A stretch of 58,269 bases of DNA from the NCBI GenBank assembly GCA_001778095.1, contig MFGA01000002.1, positions 48,827 through 107,095 on the forward strand. Reading direction: 5' to 3'. Positions 1 through 14,237 of this stretch are shown here, one piece after another (within the stretch, counting starts at the first letter, position 1; every line of letters begins with the position of its first letter). Source of the DNA: Candidatus Falkowbacteria bacterium RIFOXYA2_FULL_38_12. GTDB lineage: Bacteria > Patescibacteriota > Patescibacteriia > XYB2-FULL-38-15. The translations under genes and the position numbers were made by a program. The notes beneath the pieces were generated by a model that was not told the origin of the DNA, made no database searches, and saw only the letters and a program-made list of their open reading frames with translations.

Positions 1-1
1 A

Positions 2-223
2 TTTATCAGAACATTGGCTTCGGGGGTAGATTTTCTGGGTTGGGTTATTTTTCCACATCATTTGGTACCACGAACCAGTACAAAAAAGAGGATGTTTAAA
101 AGACTGCAACAACATTGCTCAAAAAAATCATTGACCTCTTACACCGGAATTCTTGGTCACGGAAATACTTACAAAATCGTTCGCGAAATTAAAACGAATT
201 ATCCGGATTTCCTTTTTGATTAA
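2..223 (+). CDS. 3' fragment of a reverse transcriptase gene (DGR-type C-terminus); the 5' part lies upstream of the window
   Basis: The frame is open from the window edge (FIRTLASGVDFLGWVIFPHH...). The listed start at 14 is a TTG inside this frame. An FLGW block followed by ...SLTSYTGILGHGNTYKIV... matches my recollection of DGR RT tails (FLGY/W ... SW-GH-xH-x-TY). Not searched. Confidence 0.55.
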   Translation, partial: FIRTLASGVDFLGWVIFPHHLVPRTSTKKRMFKRLQQHCSKKSLTSYTGILGHGNTYKIVREIKTNYPDFLFD

Positions 224-279
224 ATTTCCCCAAACCCCAAAGCCCCAAAGAGACAAAAAAGTGTTAAAACCTCAAAGAA

Positions 280-2220
280 TTACTTGCGAAGACGAAAGAC
301 GAACTGAGCGACAGAACTCCACCTGCGCGCAGGCTCCGCCCAATCGACGTCCAGCCACAGCCCCGCGTCACCACGACGCAGCCCGAAGACGTCCGGATAG
401 CCACCGGAACCGGCTATCTGCTTCATCCCAATATATAAATACTCATCCGTTGGCTGGTCAGCATACTGCAACCTGTACTGTGGCCCAACTTCAGCCGGAC
501 ACAATTCCAAACCAAGCTCCTTAATTTTCTGGTAAATTTGATCCGTTGTCGGGTTACCTTCCAAACCAAGATCTCCCACTTTTAATCTAACCAAATCAGT
601 TGGCTCCGATTTTTTAGCAGTGATAAAATCTTTACTGTCCAGTATTGACTGCGCATATCCACTAATTTGAATATTTTTCCCTTTCATTTCCGCCACCAGT
701 TCATTTTTCGTCTTTCCGCCAATCTCAATTGTACTTCTCACAATTTTTCCCTCAGGAAACGCCGTATAAACATACTCCAAATCTTTCAACTGTTGGAAAA
801 TATTTGGAAATAACTGGCCGACATACGCCTTCGTGTTTTCATTAACTTCACTTTGTGTGTGGGCAATTTGATCAGGTTCGCAATCAAAGCAAACGGGCGC
901 GTCTGCTTTGGGGTCGCGCTGTTGGCGCAACTCTTGGATGCGTGGGTCTGGCTTGTAGCCAAAGCCTTGAATAGGAGAATTGAGTGCATAGAAAAAAACC
1001 AAATCCGCTCGGCTTAACTCTTGCTCTTTTTTCATCTTGTTTTCAATGACGGTCAAGTGCTTCATGTCCGCATTTTTCTTTTCATACAGTTTTCCGTCAG
1101 GGAACTCTTTTAATTTGTCTTGCACCACCGTGCCAATATGTGGGTCAAGATTTTGGTCTTGACCGAAAACGCCCCGCACTTCAGCGATACTATTTTCTTG
1201 CATGCGAATAGCTGCCCGAGGAACGGTGGGTTTACCTTTGGGGTCCAAAGAATAAAATACATAGAAGTCACCGCCGTCCAATTGGGTGCGGGCAGTGGAT
1301 TCACCAGCCGTGCACCAACCCGTGCCGTGGCCTTGGAGAGATTGGACAAGTGGCGTATGATCCGAACCCTTGGGATATTTAATCCATTCGCCTCTGGTGT
1401 CGGCCAATTGTTCTTGTGAAGCGGGTGTTACTTTTTCAATAGCCCAAGCATAGAGCTTGGCGAAGCTTTCGCCTTGTAGGAGTTTTTTAAAAGCCTGCTG
1501 TTCTTGTTTTTTAGTGTGTTGTTCATCTTCAATGGTGGTAGCCTCTTCTAGTGTTATCTCTTCCAAGTCTGCTTCGGTCAATTCTATCTCTTCCTCTTTT
1601 TCTTTCGCCAACTGCGTTTCCACCTGTGGTCGGTATTTCTTTTCCACCGCGTCCAAAACATACGCCAAAGCCTCGCGGTCAAGGTCTGGAAACGATTTTA
1701 CCGTGTCTTTTCTTCTTTTACCAAATTGTTTTTTCTCTTTATCGTATTCACCCATGCCAAGGATGCTTCGCATCGCCCAGTATTTGAGCCAATCCGGATA
1801 AACGGCGTCCGGCGAAGCCATGTAATCCACCCAGTTGTCTAAACTGCTTTTTTGATCGGTTATTATTACTTCAATTAATTGTTTTCGTTGTTCTTTCCCA
1901 ATCTCCATGTCGCCGTGCCCTTGTTCACGAGCGAGACGGCGTTGGGTGTTAAAATATGCTTCCGGAACTTCGGCGGGTTTGATGATATGACCGTCATACA
2001 GCGATTGTTTGAAGCGTGCCAGTTTTTCTTCACGGCGAGGGTTGTTTGGGTCTATACTATTGGAAATGTAGTCTAAATAATTTTGGATGCGGGCTTCAGG
2101 TTTTTCCGACACCTTGGCACCTGTTTTGGTTTCAGTGTTTACGGCAATTTTAGTCACTTCTTCGCTGGAACTTAAATCACGATATTTGGTTTGAAGAAAG
2201 GCGGGGTTGCGTTCGGACAT
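280..2220 (-). CDS. Hypothetical 646-aa protein; candidate DGR target whose C-terminal end looks like a variable region
   Basis: Long intact ORF convergent with the RT fragment. The body is AT-rich. The last ~44 codons switch abruptly to GC-rich, A-poor sequence and end ...WSSVAQFVFRLRK, reminiscent of the GFRL end of C-type-lectin/FGE-fold DGR variable regions. Confidence 0.8.
   Translation of the reverse strand: MSERNPAFLQTKYRDLSSSEEVTKIAVNTETKTGAKVSEKPEARIQNYLDYISNSIDPNNPRREEKLARFKQSLYDGHIIKPAEVPEAYFNTQRRLAREQGHGDMEIGKEQRKQLIEVIITDQKSSLDNWVDYMASPDAVYPDWLKYWAMRSILGMGEYDKEKKQFGKRRKDTVKSFPDLDREALAYVLDAVEKKYRPQVETQLAKEKEEEIELTEADLEEITLEEATTIEDEQHTKKQEQQAFKKLLQGESFAKLYAWAIEKVTPASQEQLADTRGEWIKYPKGSDHTPLVQSLQGHGTGWCTAGESTARTQLDGGDFYVFYSLDPKGKPTVPRAAIRMQENSIAEVRGVFGQDQNLDPHIGTVVQDKLKEFPDGKLYEKKNADMKHLTVIENKMKKEQELSRADLVFFYALNSPIQGFGYKPDPRIQELRQQRDPKADAPVCFDCEPDQIAHTQSEVNENTKAYVGQLFPNIFQQLKDLEYVYTAFPEGKIVRSTIEIGGKTKNELVAEMKGKNIQISGYAQSILDSKDFITAKKSEPTDLVRLKVGDLGLEGNPTTDQIYQKIKELGLELCPAEVGPQYRLQYADQPTDEYLYIGMKQIAGSGGYPDVFGLRRGDAGLWLDVDWAEPARRWSSVAQFVFRLRK
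283..414 (-). repeat. Candidate DGR variable repeat (VR); no template repeat is visible in the window
   Basis: By hand count, the last 44 sense codons (132 nt) are ~66% G+C. They have 11 A versus 34 T on the coding strand, in an otherwise A-rich genome. Confidence 0.45.
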
Positions 2221-2357: not shown

Positions 2358-2431
2358 TGGTGGACCATGGGAGAATCGAACTCCCGTATTCCGGATGCAA
2401 ACCGGACGCACTACCACTATGCTAATGGCCC
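2358..2431 (-). tRNA. tRNA-Ala (anticodon UGC), CCA encoded
   Basis: Cloverleaf read by eye: acceptor GGGCCAT/ATGGTCC with a G3:U70 pair, anticodon loop TTTGCAT, T-loop GGGAGTTCGATTCTCCC. Confidence 0.9.
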
Positions 2432-2553: not shown

Positions 2554-5403
2554 ATGTCCGCTCCCAATTTTCCCAAGATGGAGGAAGAAATTTTGGACTT
2601 CTGGAAAAAAGAAAAAATTTTTGAAAAAACTTTGGCTAAAAAAAGCCCTAAAGGCAGTTTTGTTTTTTTTGAAGGACCTCCTACTGCCAACGGAAAACCG
2701 GGCTTACACCATGTTGAAGCGCGTGTTTTTAAAGATATTGTTTGCCGTTATAAAACCATGCAAGGTTATTTTGTCGGCCGAAAAGCCGGCTGGGATACTC
2801 ATGGTCTGCCGGTTGAACTTCAAGTTGAAAAAGAACTGAAATTTTCCGGAAAACCCGATATTGAAAAATACGGAATCAAATCATTTAATGAAAAATGCAA
2901 AGAGAGTGTTTGGCGTAATAAAGAAGAATTCGAAAAAATGACTGAACGCATCGCCTACTGGCTTGATTTGGAAAATCCATATATCACCTACGATAATAAC
3001 TATATTGAATCGCTTTGGTGGATTTTAAAACAAATTTGGGACAAGGGTTTGCTCTATGAAAGATATAAAATCCTTCCCCAATGTCCTCGTTGCGGAACAG
3101 CCCTTTCCTCTCACGAAGTCGCTCTTGGCTACAAAAATGTTGAAGAAATATCCGTCTACATAAAATTCAAAGTAACAAAGCACAGCTTGGAACTAAGCGA
3201 AGATTTACCTCTTTATATTCTCTCTTGGACAACAACCCCCTGGACTCTTCCGGGCAATGTCGCCTTGGCGGTCGGGGAAGACATTGATTATGTTTTAATC
3301 AAAAAGGATAACGAATATTTTATTATTGCCAAAACTTTAGTTGAAAAAGTGGTGGAAGAAAAATACATAATAAAAAAAGAAATGAAGGGCAAGGACTTAG
3401 TCGGAATTGAATATGAGCCACTATTCCCAGGCGCCCTTGACCCGGGAGATAAAAAAGCGTGGTACGTAACTTCGGCTGATTTTGTTTCTACGGAAGACGG
3501 CACGGGAGTGGTCCATACGGCCGTGATGTACGGTGAAGACGACTTTAATTTGGGTAAAAAAATCGGCTTGCCGGAAGTGCATACGGTTGATGAAAGCGGA
3601 TTATTTTTGCCAAGCGTAAAAAGATGGGCGGGAAAATTTGTAAAAAATGTTGAAAAAGAAATATCGGAAGATTTAAGAAGTCGCGGCTTGCTTTATAAGA
3701 CCATGCCCTACACTCACGATTACCCCTTCTGCTGGCGTTGTAGTACCCCGCTTCTTTATTACGCCAAAAAATCATGGTTTATAAAGATGTCTGAACCGGA
3801 AATAAAAGAAAAGTTAATCCAAGGCAATCAAACTATCAATTGGGTTCCCGAATATATAAGAGACGGGCGCTTCGGAGACTGGCTCCGCGAAGTCAAAGAT
3901 TGGGCGATTACCCGCGAACGTTATTGGGGCACGCCTCTTCCGATCTGGAAATGCGGATGCGGGGAAATTGTGGCGGTTGAATCTGTCGCGGAACTGGAAA
4001 AACTTAGCGGAAAAAATTTAAAAGAAATGGACTTGCATCGACCTTTTATTGATGAGATTAATCTTCCTTGTAAAAACTGCGGGGGCGAAATGAGGCGATC
4101 TCCGGAAGTTCTGGATTGCTGGTTTGATTCTGGAGCTATGCCTTTTGCCCAATGGCATTATCCATTTGAAAATAAGGAAAAAATTGATGAAGGAAGAGAA
4201 TTTCCGGCTGAATTTATTTCTGAAGCAATAGATCAAACTCGCGGATGGTTTTACACTTTGCTCGCCGTCTCCACTCTTCTTGGAAAAGAAGTTCCATATA
4301 AAAACGTGATTTGTCTCGGCCACTTGCGCGACTCTAAGGGCGAAAAAATGAGTAAATCAAAAGGGAACGTTGTTGATCTTTGGGAAGTGATTGGAAAATA
4401 TAGCGCTGATGCCGTACGTTGGTTCTTCTTTACCGTAAACCAACCCGGCGATCCAAAAAACTTCAGCCCGCTGGAGTTGGAAATAATTCTAAAAAAATTC
4501 TTTTTGGTTCTCTTTAATATTCTAAGTTTTTATAAGTTGTATGAGGGAGAGACTAATTTTAATCCGAAAAATCCATCTCACGTTTTGGATAAATGGATTA
4601 TGGCGAAATTAAATCTTCTTATTAAAGAAACTACTCTAAAATTGGATGCGTATGATGTTGTCGGCGCTGCGCGGGGTTTGGAAGAATTTAACAATGATCT
4701 TTCCACTTGGTATGTGCGTAGATCAAGAGACAGATTTAAAGAGCTTGGCGAAGATAAAGACGCGGCCGTGGCTACATTGCGCTTTGTCCTCAAAACTTTC
4801 GGTCGATTGTCCGCCCCATTTATTCCTTTTGTCGCCGAAAAAATAAACGAAGAGCTTGGTAAGGAAAACATTTCCATTCATCTTGATGATTGGCCGGAGC
4901 TTGAACCGGATTTAATTGATGAGAAAGTTTTAGAACAAATGGAAACAACTAAAAAAATCGTGGAAGCGGGACTCGCCGCAAGAGCCTTGGCCGGAATAAA
5001 AATCAGACAACCTCTTGCTTCTTACACCACTCCGCTCGCCGAAAATATTGGCGAGGAATATGTTGAGCTTATTAGAGATGAACTAAATATTTCCGAACTG
5101 AAATCCGGCGAGGAAAATCTGGATGAAAAAATAACTGAAGAGCTAAAGGAGCAAGGACTTGTCCGCGAAATCGTTCGCCTAGTAAATTCTCTTCGAAAAG
5201 AAGCGGGCCTCACCATTTCCGACCGCATTGCCATTTCCTATGAAACTAAAAATGATGCCGTTTCGCAAGCTTTTCAAAACAATGAAGAAAAAATTATGAA
5301 AGATACTCTAAGCAATGAAATAAAATTCGGCCGAAGCGAAGTCTCGTTTCAAAAAGAAAATAATGTTGAGGGCGGACTTTGGCTGGGCATTAAAAAAATA
5401 TAA
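2554..5403 (+). CDS. ileS: Isoleucyl-tRNA synthetase
   Basis: 949 aa. HIGH-type motif (PPTANGKPGLHHV), KMSKS (KMSKSKGN), the editing-domain insertion and typical class Ia blocks (WTTTPWTLPGN, DWAITRERYWGTPLP). Confidence 0.95.
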   Translation: MSAPNFPKMEEEILDFWKKEKIFEKTLAKKSPKGSFVFFEGPPTANGKPGLHHVEARVFKDIVCRYKTMQGYFVGRKAGWDTHGLPVELQVEKELKFSGKPDIEKYGIKSFNEKCKESVWRNKEEFEKMTERIAYWLDLENPYITYDNNYIESLWWILKQIWDKGLLYERYKILPQCPRCGTALSSHEVALGYKNVEEISVYIKFKVTKHSLELSEDLPLYILSWTTTPWTLPGNVALAVGEDIDYVLIKKDNEYFIIAKTLVEKVVEEKYIIKKEMKGKDLVGIEYEPLFPGALDPGDKKAWYVTSADFVSTEDGTGVVHTAVMYGEDDFNLGKKIGLPEVHTVDESGLFLPSVKRWAGKFVKNVEKEISEDLRSRGLLYKTMPYTHDYPFCWRCSTPLLYYAKKSWFIKMSEPEIKEKLIQGNQTINWVPEYIRDGRFGDWLREVKDWAITRERYWGTPLPIWKCGCGEIVAVESVAELEKLSGKNLKEMDLHRPFIDEINLPCKNCGGEMRRSPEVLDCWFDSGAMPFAQWHYPFENKEKIDEGREFPAEFISEAIDQTRGWFYTLLAVSTLLGKEVPYKNVICLGHLRDSKGEKMSKSKGNVVDLWEVIGKYSADAVRWFFFTVNQPGDPKNFSPLELEIILKKFFLVLFNILSFYKLYEGETNFNPKNPSHVLDKWIMAKLNLLIKETTLKLDAYDVVGAARGLEEFNNDLSTWYVRRSRDRFKELGEDKDAAVATLRFVLKTFGRLSAPFIPFVAEKINEELGKENISIHLDDWPELEPDLIDEKVLEQMETTKKIVEAGLAARALAGIKIRQPLASYTTPLAENIGEEYVELIRDELNISELKSGEENLDEKITEELKEQGLVREIVRLVNSLRKEAGLTISDRIAISYETKNDAVSQAFQNNEEKIMKDTLSNEIKFGRSEVSFQKENNVEGGLWLGIKKI

Positions 5404-7324: not shown

Positions 7325-8308
7325 ATGATCAAGGAAATAAACGATAAAAATCTTTGGAATAACTTTGTTGCCCAGCACGGCCCAAAAAGCGGGGCTTTTT
7401 TGCAATCTTTTGAATGGGGAGAATTTCAAAAATCTTTTGGTCGAAAAATTTGGCGACTGGGCAATTTTCAGGGTGACAAACTAGAATCAACTGCCTTAAT
7501 TATAAAACACGATTTATCTATAGGAAAAAGTTATCTATACTGCCCAAGGGGACCAATATTGAGCCAAGAAAATTTTAATACTGAAGAAACTTTTGGGGAA
7601 ATTATAAAAATCGCCAAAGAAAAAAAATCTATCTTCTTGAGGATTGAACCTCCTCGAGAATACAAAATATCAGATACAAAATATCAGATACAAAATACCA
7701 AATCCATCCAACCACGCCAGACTATTCTTCTTGATCTCACAAAAGAAGAAAGCGAACTTCTTCAAAAGATGCATCCAAAAACCCGCTACAATATCCGCTT
7801 GGCCGAACGCCACGGCGTTAGTGTGGAAAAAATAGATTTATCGGAAAAAAATTTTGAAATGTTTTGGAAACTACTTGTAGATACTTCAAAACGAGATAAA
7901 TTTAGCACTTATCCGAAAAAATATTATAAAAAAATGATAGAAACTCTCGGTGGCTCCGAAAATGACGCTCACATCTCTCTCTTTGTCGCGAAATACAAAA
8001 ACAAAAACCTAGCCGCAGAACTTGTTATGTTTTTTGGAAAAACTGCCACATATCTTCACGGTGCCTCTTCGGAAGAAGAGCGCGGAGTAATGGCTCCTTA
8101 TGCTATTCATTGGGAGATTATTAAAGAAGTAAAAAAAATGGGTTATAAATACTACGACTTTTGGGGAATTGATGAAAAAAAATGGCCGGGCGTAACCAGG
8201 TTCAAAAGAGGTTTTGGCGGAGAAGAAATTTCCTATCCCGGCACTTTTGATTTGCCAGTTCAGAAGATTTGGTACAAGATATATTCTCTGGTACGGAAAA
8301 TAATTTAA
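7325..8308 (+). CDS. FemAB-family peptidoglycan interpeptide-bridge aminoacyltransferase
   Basis: The HPKTRYNIRLAERHGV and YLHGASSEE...APYAIHWEIIK...YYDFWGI blocks are typical of FemAB/MurM-type transferases. Confidence 0.8.
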   Translation: MIKEINDKNLWNNFVAQHGPKSGAFLQSFEWGEFQKSFGRKIWRLGNFQGDKLESTALIIKHDLSIGKSYLYCPRGPILSQENFNTEETFGEIIKIAKEKKSIFLRIEPPREYKISDTKYQIQNTKSIQPRQTILLDLTKEESELLQKMHPKTRYNIRLAERHGVSVEKIDLSEKNFEMFWKLLVDTSKRDKFSTYPKKYYKKMIETLGGSENDAHISLFVAKYKNKNLAAELVMFFGKTATYLHGASSEEERGVMAPYAIHWEIIKEVKKMGYKYYDFWGIDEKKWPGVTRFKRGFGGEEISYPGTFDLPVQKIWYKIYSLVRKII

Positions 8309-10555: not shown

Positions 10556-13132
10556 TTATTTTCTTGTAAAACCTAACAAATAAAATCTGTCGGAGTTCAA
10601 TTCGCTCCCAGCTGTTGCAAAAGACGAGCCAAATTTCATATCTTTACCATAATACCACTTTGCTTCAAGATTATTTCCAAAATTAATTTTATCAGTAAAA
10701 TTTATTTTTGTTCCGGGTTGCTTTTGGATAAGAATTTGATAAAAACTTTTTTCTTTATCTTTGGAAAATGCCGCACGAATACCACCTAGCCAATCTTTTT
10801 CTTCTTCCGAGTAAGAAAATTTAAAAGGTAAAATATATTCTAGAACAATCGTCGCCGTATCTCCCGGATCAACCTGAACCCAATTTCCAAAAACGGTTTT
10901 ACCAAATTCTCTGCTTATTCTTGTGCCGGTCGTCTCGTCCACAAAGACTTGACTCTCTGAATTTTTTAAATCGGGATCAACAATATAATTATCACCTGGT
11001 TTTTCAAATAATTCAGTGGGTGGCGCTTCAAAACCTTCGGCGTTTAGCAAGGTACTTCCTTGCGGAACATAAACTCGCAAATAATCAACATTTCTCATTC
11101 CGGTAAATGTTTGCCATTTTTCTCCGGAATGCGCCCTTTTAATAGTTAATCTATTTTTAATATATCCATCCTCGGCAATCGTTGTCTCAAGGGAAACATC
11201 TTCTTTAATAACTTGATCTGTCTTTCCTCCGCCCAAATTGGAATGGACAATCATTAAATAATCGGTTTTCTCGTTGACTGATTTTACTTTTCCGCCCCAA
11301 TCAAGATTTAAGATTTCATGCTCTATTTCCGGAAAAACTGAATACAAAATAATATTTCTCTCGCCCAAACCTTTTGCGAAAATTGACAATATTTTTCCAA
11401 ACTCGCGCGGACTACTTTTGAAAATTTTATCAAGCAAAAGCGGAGCCATATCCCCAATAATTTGTTTTGGCTTATTTTCTTTTTTATTATATTCAATCTC
11501 CACTGATTTTTGAATTTCCTCTACAAAGTTGTTCGCGTCAATTATTTTATTGTACTTAGAAAGTGTAATCGGCCCGGCTACTTCCAAAAGATCAACAATC
11601 AAATCTGAATTAATGGCAACAACGCCATCAATCGTCGGCCCACCACCCTTTTCATAAAACCATTTTATTTTTTCGGCGGATGTTGGAAAATCCGGAAACC
11701 AATTCGCGTCTTGAAGTTCCCAACGCGGATTTATAAGAGTAAGCGGTTCCGGAGCAACAACTTTTTCTTTTAAAGATCCCTTAAAATCATACGGCCCGCC
11801 ACCCGGAACTTCTATTTTTGTAATTTGCCCTTCATTAAAATCAACCAAGGCCAGACTCCCCATAAAACCGCCGGTCGGCCTTAGTTCTCCTGTATTTTGA
11901 AAAACAAATAAATATCTTTTTGACGCCTCATCTCCCAAAAATTTTATCATCAAATCGGAAATTGAAATTAATTTTTTAAAACTCCCGACAAGATTCGGCA
12001 ATTTCTCTTGAAGTTTTATAAAAGTCTCTTGCTTGTCTTCGGGAATCGCTTCACTATCCACCAAAGCCAGTCTGTCTCTGGCCGCCGCAATATCGGGAAG
12101 CATTTCGGATAACTGATCTCTTAATATTTTTACCTTTGGCGTTAGTCTTCCGTCACTCTCATTTTTAGTAAAAGCCGCCAAACTGTCCAATAAATTTCTT
12201 CCCACCAAGGAAAGTTTCTCTCCGGCAAAGAATAAAGCATCGCCCGCTTCCAACTTATCTCCTTGTGGCAAGGCTTTGGCTATTCCGGCAACAATAAAAT
12301 TTATTTTGTTAAGTTCGCGCTGGGCCGCTCCGAACGCTCCGGCCGCTTCCTCTAAATTATTTGCCGCTCCGGAAAAATCAGAATTGGCGATCTGTCCGCC
12401 ACCCTCAACCAAGCTGGCATAAGCGTCGTTTGCTCCATCTAAAACTTTATTTTCCGCCTTTTTTAGCGTTCCGTAATAAGAAAAAGCTTGAAGAGGCAAA
12501 ATTAAAACAAAAGCAACGAGACCAAAACTGACAACTTTTTTGCAATCGGCAAAAGATAGTTTTAAAAACTTAAAATTATTTTCAAATTTGCTGATGTTTT
12601 CTTTAAAAGCCGGCGGGATTATGTTGATTTTGGAAAAAAATTCTTTTGGGGATTTAAAAATAAAAGTTGAAATTGATTTCAATTTAGTCCAAATCTTCTT
12701 GGATTCGCCAGTTGTAAAATAAAAAACTCCTTGCGGCGCCTTAACGCAAAATTCCTTTGTCTTTTTTAAAAAATTAAAATCAATCGTCTTCTTTTCTTGC
12801 TTCTTTATTTCTTTTTTCGCAATCAACGTTTTTTCTTTTACTTCCTGTGGTTCGCCGGAGCTTAGAGCGTAGGCGACTTTTTCCTTCTTTATCGGCTCAA
12901 TCTTTTTTACCTCTTTCCTTTTTTCCGCGACAATTTTTCGCAAATCTAAAATATGCAAGGACGGTTCTGTCCTAAAAATTCTTTCGCTCCTCGCCTCCCT
13001 CTCCTCTTCTTTCTTTTCCTTCTCCATCTCTTGTAACACCACCAAAGATGGATCAACTATTTCCTCCTTCACTTTCTTTTTTGCTTTTGACGCGGGGTTC
13101 TCCTCAATTTTCTCTTCTTTTTTTCTCCTCAT
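10556..13132 (-). CDS. DUF4012 domain-containing envelope protein
   Basis: 858 aa, with a Lys/Glu-rich N-terminus and a TM segment. The block LFVFQNTGELRPTGGFMGSLALVDF is the hallmark I recall for DUF4012, a family that usually sits next to glycosyltransferases. Confidence 0.75.
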   Translation of the reverse strand: MRRKKEEKIEENPASKAKKKVKEEIVDPSLVVLQEMEKEKKEEEREARSERIFRTEPSLHILDLRKIVAEKRKEVKKIEPIKKEKVAYALSSGEPQEVKEKTLIAKKEIKKQEKKTIDFNFLKKTKEFCVKAPQGVFYFTTGESKKIWTKLKSISTFIFKSPKEFFSKINIIPPAFKENISKFENNFKFLKLSFADCKKVVSFGLVAFVLILPLQAFSYYGTLKKAENKVLDGANDAYASLVEGGGQIANSDFSGAANNLEEAAGAFGAAQRELNKINFIVAGIAKALPQGDKLEAGDALFFAGEKLSLVGRNLLDSLAAFTKNESDGRLTPKVKILRDQLSEMLPDIAAARDRLALVDSEAIPEDKQETFIKLQEKLPNLVGSFKKLISISDLMIKFLGDEASKRYLFVFQNTGELRPTGGFMGSLALVDFNEGQITKIEVPGGGPYDFKGSLKEKVVAPEPLTLINPRWELQDANWFPDFPTSAEKIKWFYEKGGGPTIDGVVAINSDLIVDLLEVAGPITLSKYNKIIDANNFVEEIQKSVEIEYNKKENKPKQIIGDMAPLLLDKIFKSSPREFGKILSIFAKGLGERNIILYSVFPEIEHEILNLDWGGKVKSVNEKTDYLMIVHSNLGGGKTDQVIKEDVSLETTIAEDGYIKNRLTIKRAHSGEKWQTFTGMRNVDYLRVYVPQGSTLLNAEGFEAPPTELFEKPGDNYIVDPDLKNSESQVFVDETTGTRISREFGKTVFGNWVQVDPGDTATIVLEYILPFKFSYSEEEKDWLGGIRAAFSKDKEKSFYQILIQKQPGTKINFTDKINFGNNLEAKWYYGKDMKFGSSFATAGSELNSDRFYLLGFTRK

Positions 13133-14237
13133 TTTTGTATATTTCTAAAGTTTTTTTCGCGAGCGATTCCCAGCTGTATTTTTTAATCTGTAGAAATCCT
13201 TTTTCGGATAATCTCTTCCTTAGTTCTTCGTCAAAATAAATAAGCTTTATCTTCTTTATTATATCATCTTTATCGCGAGGATTAAAGTATATTGCCGCAT
13301 CTTCGTAAATTTCCTCTAAACAAGAGGAATTTGAGGCGAGAACGGGCAAGCCGTAATTCATTGCTTCGAGCCCCGGAAGGCCAAATCCTTCAATAAACGA
13401 GGGAAAAACATAAAGACGCGCCCCGCGATAGAGATCGGCTAAAACTGCTTCATTTACAAAATTAGTGAAAATAATCTTCTCTTTCTCATTCTCGTGGACC
13501 ATTTCTTTCAGTCTTTTGTAAAAATAATCTTCCTTACCCACAAAAACCAATTGGCAGCCAATAGCTAAATCCCGATAAACCTCAATTAATGTCTCCAAGT
13601 TCTTATGCGGATAAGCATTACCAACATAGAGAATAAAAGGTTTGGTGATGCCGAGCTTTGCCAAACTTTCTTTTTCCGGAATTTTTAATTGCCCATACTC
13701 CACCCCGTCGCAAGCCTCGTAGGCGACCTCAATTTTATCTTCTTTGATTTTAAAATATTTTATTATTTCTTTTTTTGTGTATTCCGAAACCGTTAAAACT
13801 TTTTTGGCGCGCCACACGGCAAACCAAATGACAAATTTATAGACCAAATATTTTATCTTATAAAAAATGGGGCTTAATGTCGTCGCCCGCGGAGTCGGAA
13901 ATTGCAGAAGAATCAAGTCGTGAATTGTGGCAACAAATTTTATTGGACAAAAAATGGGAATATTAAAATGCGGGAAGTGCATCAAGTCAACTTTTTCCTT
14001 CCAGATCGCCAGAGGCATCATAATCTGCTCTTTAAAACTGTACCACTTGCAATCTGCTAAAACTTTTTTGAAATTAGAAAATTTGGGAGTATAATAATCC
14101 CAATTTTCTCTACGCAAAAAAATGATGTACTCATTTTCTCGATCTATCTTTTCTAGGTTCTCTACGAGCCGCTCAACATACCTCCCCAAACCCTTGCTTA
14201 CCGGCCCGAGAAACCTTGCATCTATGCCGATTTTCAT
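13104..14237 (-). CDS. Glycosyltransferase family 4
   Basis: MKIGIDARFL N-terminus and a C-terminal EGFGLPGLEAMNYGLPVLAS motif (GT-B, GT4). Confidence 0.85.
   Translation of the reverse strand: MKIGIDARFLGPVSKGLGRYVERLVENLEKIDRENEYIIFLRRENWDYYTPKFSNFKKVLADCKWYSFKEQIMMPLAIWKEKVDLMHFPHFNIPIFCPIKFVATIHDLILLQFPTPRATTLSPIFYKIKYLVYKFVIWFAVWRAKKVLTVSEYTKKEIIKYFKIKEDKIEVAYEACDGVEYGQLKIPEKESLAKLGITKPFILYVGNAYPHKNLETLIEVYRDLAIGCQLVFVGKEDYFYKRLKEMVHENEKEKIIFTNFVNEAVLADLYRGARLYVFPSFIEGFGLPGLEAMNYGLPVLASNSSCLEEIYEDAAIYFNPRDKDDIIKKIKLIYFDEELRKRLSEKGFLQIKKYSWESLAKKTLEIYKNEEKKRREN

Follow-up and report, generated by a model that had tools for sequence, protein, structure and literature searches.

What has left the last codons of a bacterial gene so poor in adenine, next to the gene for a reverse transcriptase (RT)? 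The question is raised by the left end of a 58,269-nucleotide (nt) stretch of the genome of Candidatus Falkowbacteria bacterium RIFOXYA2_FULL_38_12 (contig MFGA01000002.1), referred to here as the window. A sequence-only reading of the window had proposed part of a diversity-generating retroelement (DGR), with the template repeat (TR) and the avd gene lying outside. We conclude that the left end of the window is very probably the target side of a complete chromosomal DGR. The element is of a type known from candidate phyla radiation (CPR) bacteria, and it is real, complete and recently active.

An adenine-poor gene end and its template repeat

The target gene, as given in the open reading frame (ORF) list, encodes 646 amino acids (aa) on the minus strand (window 280..2220, stop codon 280-282). 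Its last 44 codons (283-414) contain 11 A, 34 T, 52 G and 35 C on the coding strand, in exact agreement with the A and T counts and the G+C content of about 66% originally noted. The G+C content of this segment is 65.9%, compared with 39.1% for the whole window, and A makes up 33.6% of the remainder of the gene. A scan of all 132-nt segments of the 58 kb, on either strand, gave just five that are equally A-poor; they overlap and all lie here, among them the most A-poor 132-mer of the window. The A-poor gene end is an outlier and not a product of chance.

Parts of the locus beyond window position 1 were read on an extended contig, MFGQ01000016.1 (GCA_001780335.1, Candidatus Falkowbacteria; locus L002). 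The reverse complement of L002 10001-12220 equals window 1-2220, and subtracting an L002 position from 12221 gives the window position. Exactly the same 646-aa protein is encoded by at least 21 public contigs. Eight of them, including MFGQ01000016.1, were obtained with flanking sequence, and in all eight the RT, avd and target genes are mutually adjacent. As had been supposed, the TR and avd lie outside the window, on the same contig, 767-1,304 nt past position 1.

A repeat search detected a 150-nt inverted repeat with one arm at the end of the target gene and the other 14 nt beyond the avd stop codon. The in-register alignment of the two copies defined a 137-nt TR about 1.2 kb past window position 1 (L002 13388-13524, reverse complement, on the RT strand) and a 137-nt variable region (VR) on the minus strand at window 281..417 (L002 11804-11940), which takes in codons 602-646 plus bases 1 and 2 of the stop codon. 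Changes were found at 25 of the 39 TR adenines and at none of the other 98 positions (Fisher p 9e-18). This is the pattern that had been foreseen in attributing the adenine depletion to DGR homing and in suggesting an upstream search for a template that matches the VR at every non-adenine. A to G accounts for 18 of the 25 changes; there are 5 A to T changes (counted in the 150-nt register) and 3 A to C changes. The TR adenines are distributed over codon positions 1, 2 and 3 as 15, 21 and 3, so that 36 of 39 occupy positions 1 or 2. The TR contains eight AAY codons in a reading frame free of stops, which translates to KTDSDGNPNVFKLNRDDAELWLNNNWAKPTNKWNSDAQFVFRLRK, while the VR translates to IAGSGGYPDVFGLRRGDAGLWLDVDWAEPARRWSSVAQFVFRLRK. 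Recoding can affect 22 codons, most of which read AAY, GAY or AAR in the TR, and could yield about 1e21 different peptides. VR and TR share an almost A-free 3' segment, and their homology stops at the stop codon, which is TAA in the VR and TAT in the TR. An adenine-masked scan of the window and the 22-kb L002 locus gave 281-417 as the single site and no second VR for this TR.

The reverse transcriptase and Avd

The window opens within the RT gene, of which it holds the last 73 codons and the stop on the plus strand (2..223, stop 221-223, from the ORF list). This tail contains ...GVDFLGWVIFPHH...SLTSYTGILGHGNTYKIV..., and its DGR-like character, recognized at the outset, was borne out by the full gene, which lies on the minus strand of L002 (11998-12882), encodes 294 aa and matches Pfam RVT_1. 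Among solved structures, the RT's closest relative is 8ub7_A (E 1.1e-36, 130 bits), labelled in the search table just 'Reverse transcriptase', which we take to be bRT, the RT of the DGR of Bordetella phage BPP-1. Group II and retron-type RTs reached at most 70 bits (E 2e-18), so the similarity search made to classify the RT placed it closest to bRT. The aligned motifs include GLPLGNLTSQLFVNIY, containing the DGR-type LGNLTSQ within GLPLGNLTSQ ([ILV]GxxxSQ, motif 4), and an intact YADD; among PHROGs the RT matched the phage RT family phrog_1423 with 319 bits. Judged from similarity and motifs, the RT can be assigned to the DGR clade.

The small Avd-like gene that had been sought was found between the RT and the TR. 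It encodes 128 aa, is divergent from the RT gene (L002 12987-13373), and is recognized by Pfam bAvd (PF22296) and by the PHROG 'Avd protein of DGR' (6e-20). The TR lies 506 nt from the RT start.

Within the window, the RT and target genes converge as described in the sequence-only reading, with the 646-aa length and stop position unchanged; the spacer between the two stops measures 56 nt (224..279) and not 57 nt. Positions 228-246 of the spacer carry three C4 tracts, which correspond to CTTTGGGG-type 8-nt repeats when read on the target strand. CTTTGAnn-type repeats of 8-9 nt are also present after the VR in the usual layout of the family.

The target protein and its variable C-terminal domain

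Searches of the target against Pfam, NCBIfam, PADLOC and PHROGs returned chance-level matches at most. No sequence match was found in the PDB, and profile searches with the whole family and with the C-terminal domain were also empty. The protein lacks transmembrane segments and a Walker A motif; it is soluble and probably cytoplasmic. Homologs are abundant: 2,328 were present in the protein collection, the top 120 being 52-94% identical and mostly full length. Relatives occur in 312 species genomes; most records are named as Patescibacteria, and many co-assembly bins bear other taxon labels. By these sequence matches, the target is a member of a large, conserved and unannotated Patescibacteria family.

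The homolog alignment showed a strongly conserved body, including an invariant SLQGHGTGWCTAGES block. The motif HGTGWCTAGES (residues 298-308, window 1297..1329, minus strand) is invariant in 32 of 32 aligned homologs, which are 57-89% identical to the query, and contains one conserved cysteine, Cys303. It is set in a small alpha/beta region within the body and looks like an active site; Foldseek and PDB searches gave no fold or family match for this region. In the same 32 homologs, hypervariability in the last 45 residues falls on positions corresponding to TR adenines, within the constant frame MKQIxDxxGxPxVFxLxRxxDGLWLxxxWAxPxxxWxPDxxFVFRLRK.

The AlphaFold model has a predicted local distance difference test (pLDDT) value of 81 for the full protein and 95.3 for residues 500-646. 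The model of this latter segment (numbered from its own start) comprises a strand (44-48), two helices (60-69 and 79-86) and four strands (95-98, 110-118, 121-128 and 140-145). In this numbering, residues 103-147 represent the VR, which takes up the last three strands together with their loops. The domain with this C-type-lectin-like topology, delimited by AlphaFold and Foldseek, spans residues 537-646 (window 283..612, minus strand). Among its top 20 PDB matches in Foldseek, 17 were carbohydrate-recognition domains (CRDs) of C-type lectins, with a best E of 0.057. The lectin matches stay below significance (E 0.06-0.9, probability at most 0.66, template modelling (TM) scores 0.34-0.45), which counts against the assignment, and a BFVD structure search returned nothing significant. 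The C-type-lectin-like ending originally suggested is thus upheld in predicted topology and in the dominance of lectins among the matches, and not in the structure scores; a lectin-like fold is likely but unproven for the modelled domain. With the full-length model, Foldseek gave weak lectin matches at the C-terminus and left the N-terminal 530 residues unmatched, and this part of the protein, already described as unassigned, matches nothing. Scattered GNAT/HAT similarities in the full-length search had E values above 4 and were not trusted.

Strain variation and alternative explanations

Evidence bearing on homing activity came from a sister strain in another genome bin (locus L015), whose flanks are 99.3-99.8% identical to those of L002 and which shares its inverted layout. 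The two loci differ at 7 positions in about 1,045 nt of the target body, at none in the spacer and at 2 in 885 nt of the RT. Between their VRs there are 24 differences in 137 positions, each of them at a TR adenine, since the L015 VR fits the adenine-masked TR exactly; between the TR and VR of L015 itself, 19 of 19 differences are at TR adenines. Because near-identical strains carry different VRs, homing would have taken place after L002 and L015 split, and the comparison argues for recent, independent mutagenic homing in the two strains.

Several observations weigh against an intact and active DGR. Avd scored 74 bits with the NCBIfam model DivGenRetAVD, slightly below the cut-off of 80. No GC-rich inverted repeat was found downstream of the VR in the locus sequence or by the repeat search; such a repeat is not obligatory, because it follows the VR in just 34% of DGRs (Wu et al., 2018, PMC5758913). 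Over 3.8 kb including the VR, the eight contigs, which stem from different samples and assemblies, are 100% identical, with the exception of L004, and the 90% protein cluster of the target has one member, so that these assemblies give no sign of ongoing diversification in that population. The exception, a metagenome contig (JGI 3300025095), is otherwise near-identical and has an RT deletion of about 37 nt near position 3600 (L002 ~12355-12391), due either to an error of assembly or to a sub-population whose RT is broken. Adenine-masked TR patterns used in a search for VR variants had no match in the metagenome contig collection, which evidently lacks this organism; the same patterns match the fetched loci.

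The strongest competing account is that the element is a DGR by descent that is now silent or decaying in this population, the VR being the frozen product of past homing. The uniformity of the eight exact-protein contigs over the whole locus, the absence of VR variants from the 90% cluster and the RT deletion in one assembly all fit this account, as do degenerate-looking family loci with an RT lacking avd and TR (L009, L047) or a leader lacking an RT (L029). Yet the RT ORF with its YADD, Avd, the TR, the leader and the terminator are all intact, and the non-adenine positions of TR and VR, which would decay without continued copying, are 100% identical. The identical contigs are possibly re-assemblies of a single aquifer population, and assemblies give a consensus; the near-identical L015 has a different VR. 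We therefore regard a silent element as unlikely, while leaving it some weight.

The other two accounts dispense with a DGR altogether. The TR could have arisen by partial duplication of the gene end and decayed since, altered by ordinary mutation or by an A-to-G bias at the DNA level with no reverse transcription; the predominance of A to G (18 of 25 changes) is a skew that a deaminase-like process could also produce. A to T and A to C changes are nevertheless seen, none of the 98 non-adenine positions has changed, the changed adenines are on the coding strand only, and two strains substitute the same adenines differently. Moreover, the copy is embedded in a conserved cassette of RT, avd and leader, and we consider this account highly improbable. 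Still less credible is that the RT belongs to a group II intron, a retron or a defence system and that the GC-rich, A-poor gene end is an unrelated compositional island. No NCBIfam model names the RT, the top-listed group II and Drt models fall far under their cut-offs, and PADLOC gave weak DRT similarities. Set against this are the strictly adenine-specific TR, whose presence in 7 independent contigs argues against an assembly artefact, the adjacent Avd, a bRT match with twice the group II bit score, the same cassette at dozens of homologous loci and the lack of intron RNA domains in the locus. Judged on the TR/VR pattern, this last account is already refuted. A complete chromosomal DGR is the reading that we carry forward.

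Arrangement of the cassette across the target family

The family context was examined in 80 returned genome loci, 75 of which span the C-terminus of the target; 49 of these 75 have at least 2.5 kb of downstream sequence. DGR parts are present in 26 of the 49 loci, and none were found within 6 kb in the remaining 23. A TR with adenine-specific differences stands beside avd and RT at 28 family loci. In the usual layout, target (+) is followed by about 350 nt, TR (+), avd (-) and RT (+), from which we infer the 'B3' subtype, an architecture to which 90% of CPR DGRs reportedly belong (Wu et al., 2018, PMC5758913). A Patescibacteria-restricted clade of DGRs (clade 2), whose targets lack recognisable domains, has also been described (Roux et al., 2021, PMC8144416). 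The expectation that this DGR would belong to a class known to be common in CPR genomes agrees with these reported types; no match to the locus itself was found in the supplementary material of Roux et al. (2021).

Convergence of RT and target, noted beforehand as not the commonest layout and indeed uncommon here, occurs at the query and at L009, L011, L015, L047 and L058, that is, at 6 of about 40 DGR-bearing family loci. Where the sequence extends far enough, in L002 and L011, the entire leader-TR-avd-RT block is inverted. Such an inversion is compatible with homing because the TR RNA acts in trans.

Some loci depart further from the usual order. L035 has two identical leader copies (8034-8218 and 11140-11324), together with copies of a 120-nt repeat, about 3.1 kb apart, and looks like a duplicated cassette. 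The leader match of L029 (8020-8179) is weaker, at 56 bits; neither RT nor Avd lies within 6 kb of it, and the locus looks like a decayed cassette. L009 and L047 have an RT without avd or TR.

A conserved structured RNA preceding the template repeat

Directly 5' of the TR, loci of this DGR clade share a conserved leader of about 300 nt that follows a -10 box. The box is TATAAT in L002 and several other loci, TATACT-like in most others, and usually preceded by TG. At the locus studied here, the leader, delimited by covariation, lies on the minus strand at L002 13525-13790, about 1.3-1.6 kb past window position 1. RNAalifold analysis of 20 loci predicted 79 base pairs, 49 of which show compensatory changes. 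Paired cells amounted to 94.7%, compared with about 41% when the partners were slid, and the covariation score of 0.51, against about 0.12, was reached by none of 500 shuffles. With a covariance model built on helices P2-P3, 36 of 81 loci gave a total of 38 sites, and 17 of these did not belong to the training set. All sites that were compared with a mapped TR lay just upstream of it. The model found no site within the window, and comparison of the leader with Rfam matched no family.

On the other side of the TR, all 28 loci examined have a GC hairpin and a U-run 7-15 nt after the repeat, with stems that covary between loci. In L002, the hairpin reads CCGCAC-TATAAT-GTGCGG-TTTTTCTTTT (13361-13378, minus strand), overlaps the stop codon of avd, which is on the opposite strand, and is flagged by the terminator scan. 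It could be the terminator of the TR RNA, an Avd-binding stem-loop, or both.

An A-rich/ACUU block of the leader is complementary to the TR 3' end and its tail. The mean energy of the cognate duplexes is -7.8 kcal/mol, compared with -6.75 kcal/mol for non-cognate combinations and -3.1 kcal/mol for shuffled tails (permutation p 0.003). Complementarity at this level is suggestive of a possible priming duplex and does not prove one. Another candidate, the RNAalifold pair between a leader ACUUG and an internal TR CAAGU, was rejected as a priming duplex; it shows no compensatory change and lies upstream of the mutagenised positions.

The RNA that the DGR of the Bordetella phage requires is made up of 20 nt of avd, the TR and a 140-nt spacer located 3' of the TR, with an Avd-binding stem-loop directly after the TR. 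Only a hairpin follows the TR in the loci studied here, so the remaining scaffold may be the 5' leader. The leader may be the RT/Avd-binding scaffold of this DGR clade.

Genomic neighbourhood

Upstream of the target start, by 137 nt, is a tRNA-Ala(TGC) gene (window 2358-2431, minus strand), followed by the gene for isoleucyl-tRNA synthetase (window 2554-5403). An Rfam scan of the locus matched the tRNA only and found no intron RNA domains. Past the TR and outside the window (L002 13824-17854), the DGR is adjoined by an AbiEi/AbiEii toxin-antitoxin pair and a 712-aa fusion of a PrimPol (archaeo-eukaryotic primase, AEP) with a helicase, which suggests a defence or mobile-element neighbourhood.

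Discussion

By analogy with the Bordetella phage system, the TR would be transcribed as an RNA of its own, comprising the ~300-nt leader behind the promoter-like TG-TATAAT box, the TR, and the hairpin with its U-run. In line with BPP-1, a complex of RT and Avd would copy the TR RNA into complementary DNA (cDNA), misincorporating opposite adenines, and the cDNA would replace the homologous last 45 codons of the target (window 281-417). In this way 22 codons on the C-terminal three strands and loops would be recoded, while the A-free 3' segment of the VR and the scaffold residues would stay constant. The most likely role, again by analogy, would be to tune the ligand to which the conserved body of the target is directed.

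The parallels with the BPP-1 DGR (mtd, avd, TR, brt) are an RT of the same clade (E 1e-36), an Avd, a TR of about 135 nt, adenine-only TR/VR differences, AAY codons, and a VR that forms the C-terminal end of a small ligand-binding domain. Unlike the BPP-1 element, which resides in a phage, the Falkowbacteria DGR is chromosomal and belongs to a CPR bacterium. Its avd is on the strand opposite the TR and RT, its VR is followed by no GC-rich inverted repeat, and its target is a soluble 646-aa protein rather than a tail fibre. The 140-nt spacer RNA after the TR is missing, with only a hairpin and U-run in its place, and the ~300-nt leader stands before the TR. With the described CPR DGRs (B3, PMC5758913; clade 2, PMC8144416) the element has in common its host group, its aquatic source, a cellular and not viral location, and targets that lack transmembrane or recognised domains; it differs in that, at the query and five related loci, the leader-TR-avd-RT block is inverted and RT and target converge. 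The target resembles the variable proteins of C-type-lectin fold (Mtd, TvpA, TaqVP and the archaeal AvpA) in having its VR as the last ~45 residues of a strand-helix-helix-four-strand domain and in its conserved hydrophobic end strand, FVFRLRK in the query; lectin CRDs were also the sole fold class repeatedly recovered for the domain. Unlike them, it lacks sequence similarity to solved lectin or formylglycine-generating enzyme (FGE) domains, and the domain is small, at about 110 aa.

We tentatively propose that this Patescibacteria clade uses a permuted DGR RNA, in which the 5' leader would recruit the RT-Avd complex and position the primer. Coupled to this proposal, and held with the same reserve, is the idea that target hypervariation would serve intracellular recognition and not binding at the surface. 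The soluble target family with its invariant HGTGWCTAGES gives a hint in that direction.

As one more DGR, the element adds little: that CPR bacteria are rich in DGRs was known before, and the present genome stems from the aquifer data used for the first survey of them. What the locus brings to view is a large, conserved 'hypothetical' Patescibacteria family, about half of whose members adjoin the same DGR, and a cassette that works in either orientation. It also places the TR within a conserved structured RNA, which could be used to study DGR priming beyond the single phage model.

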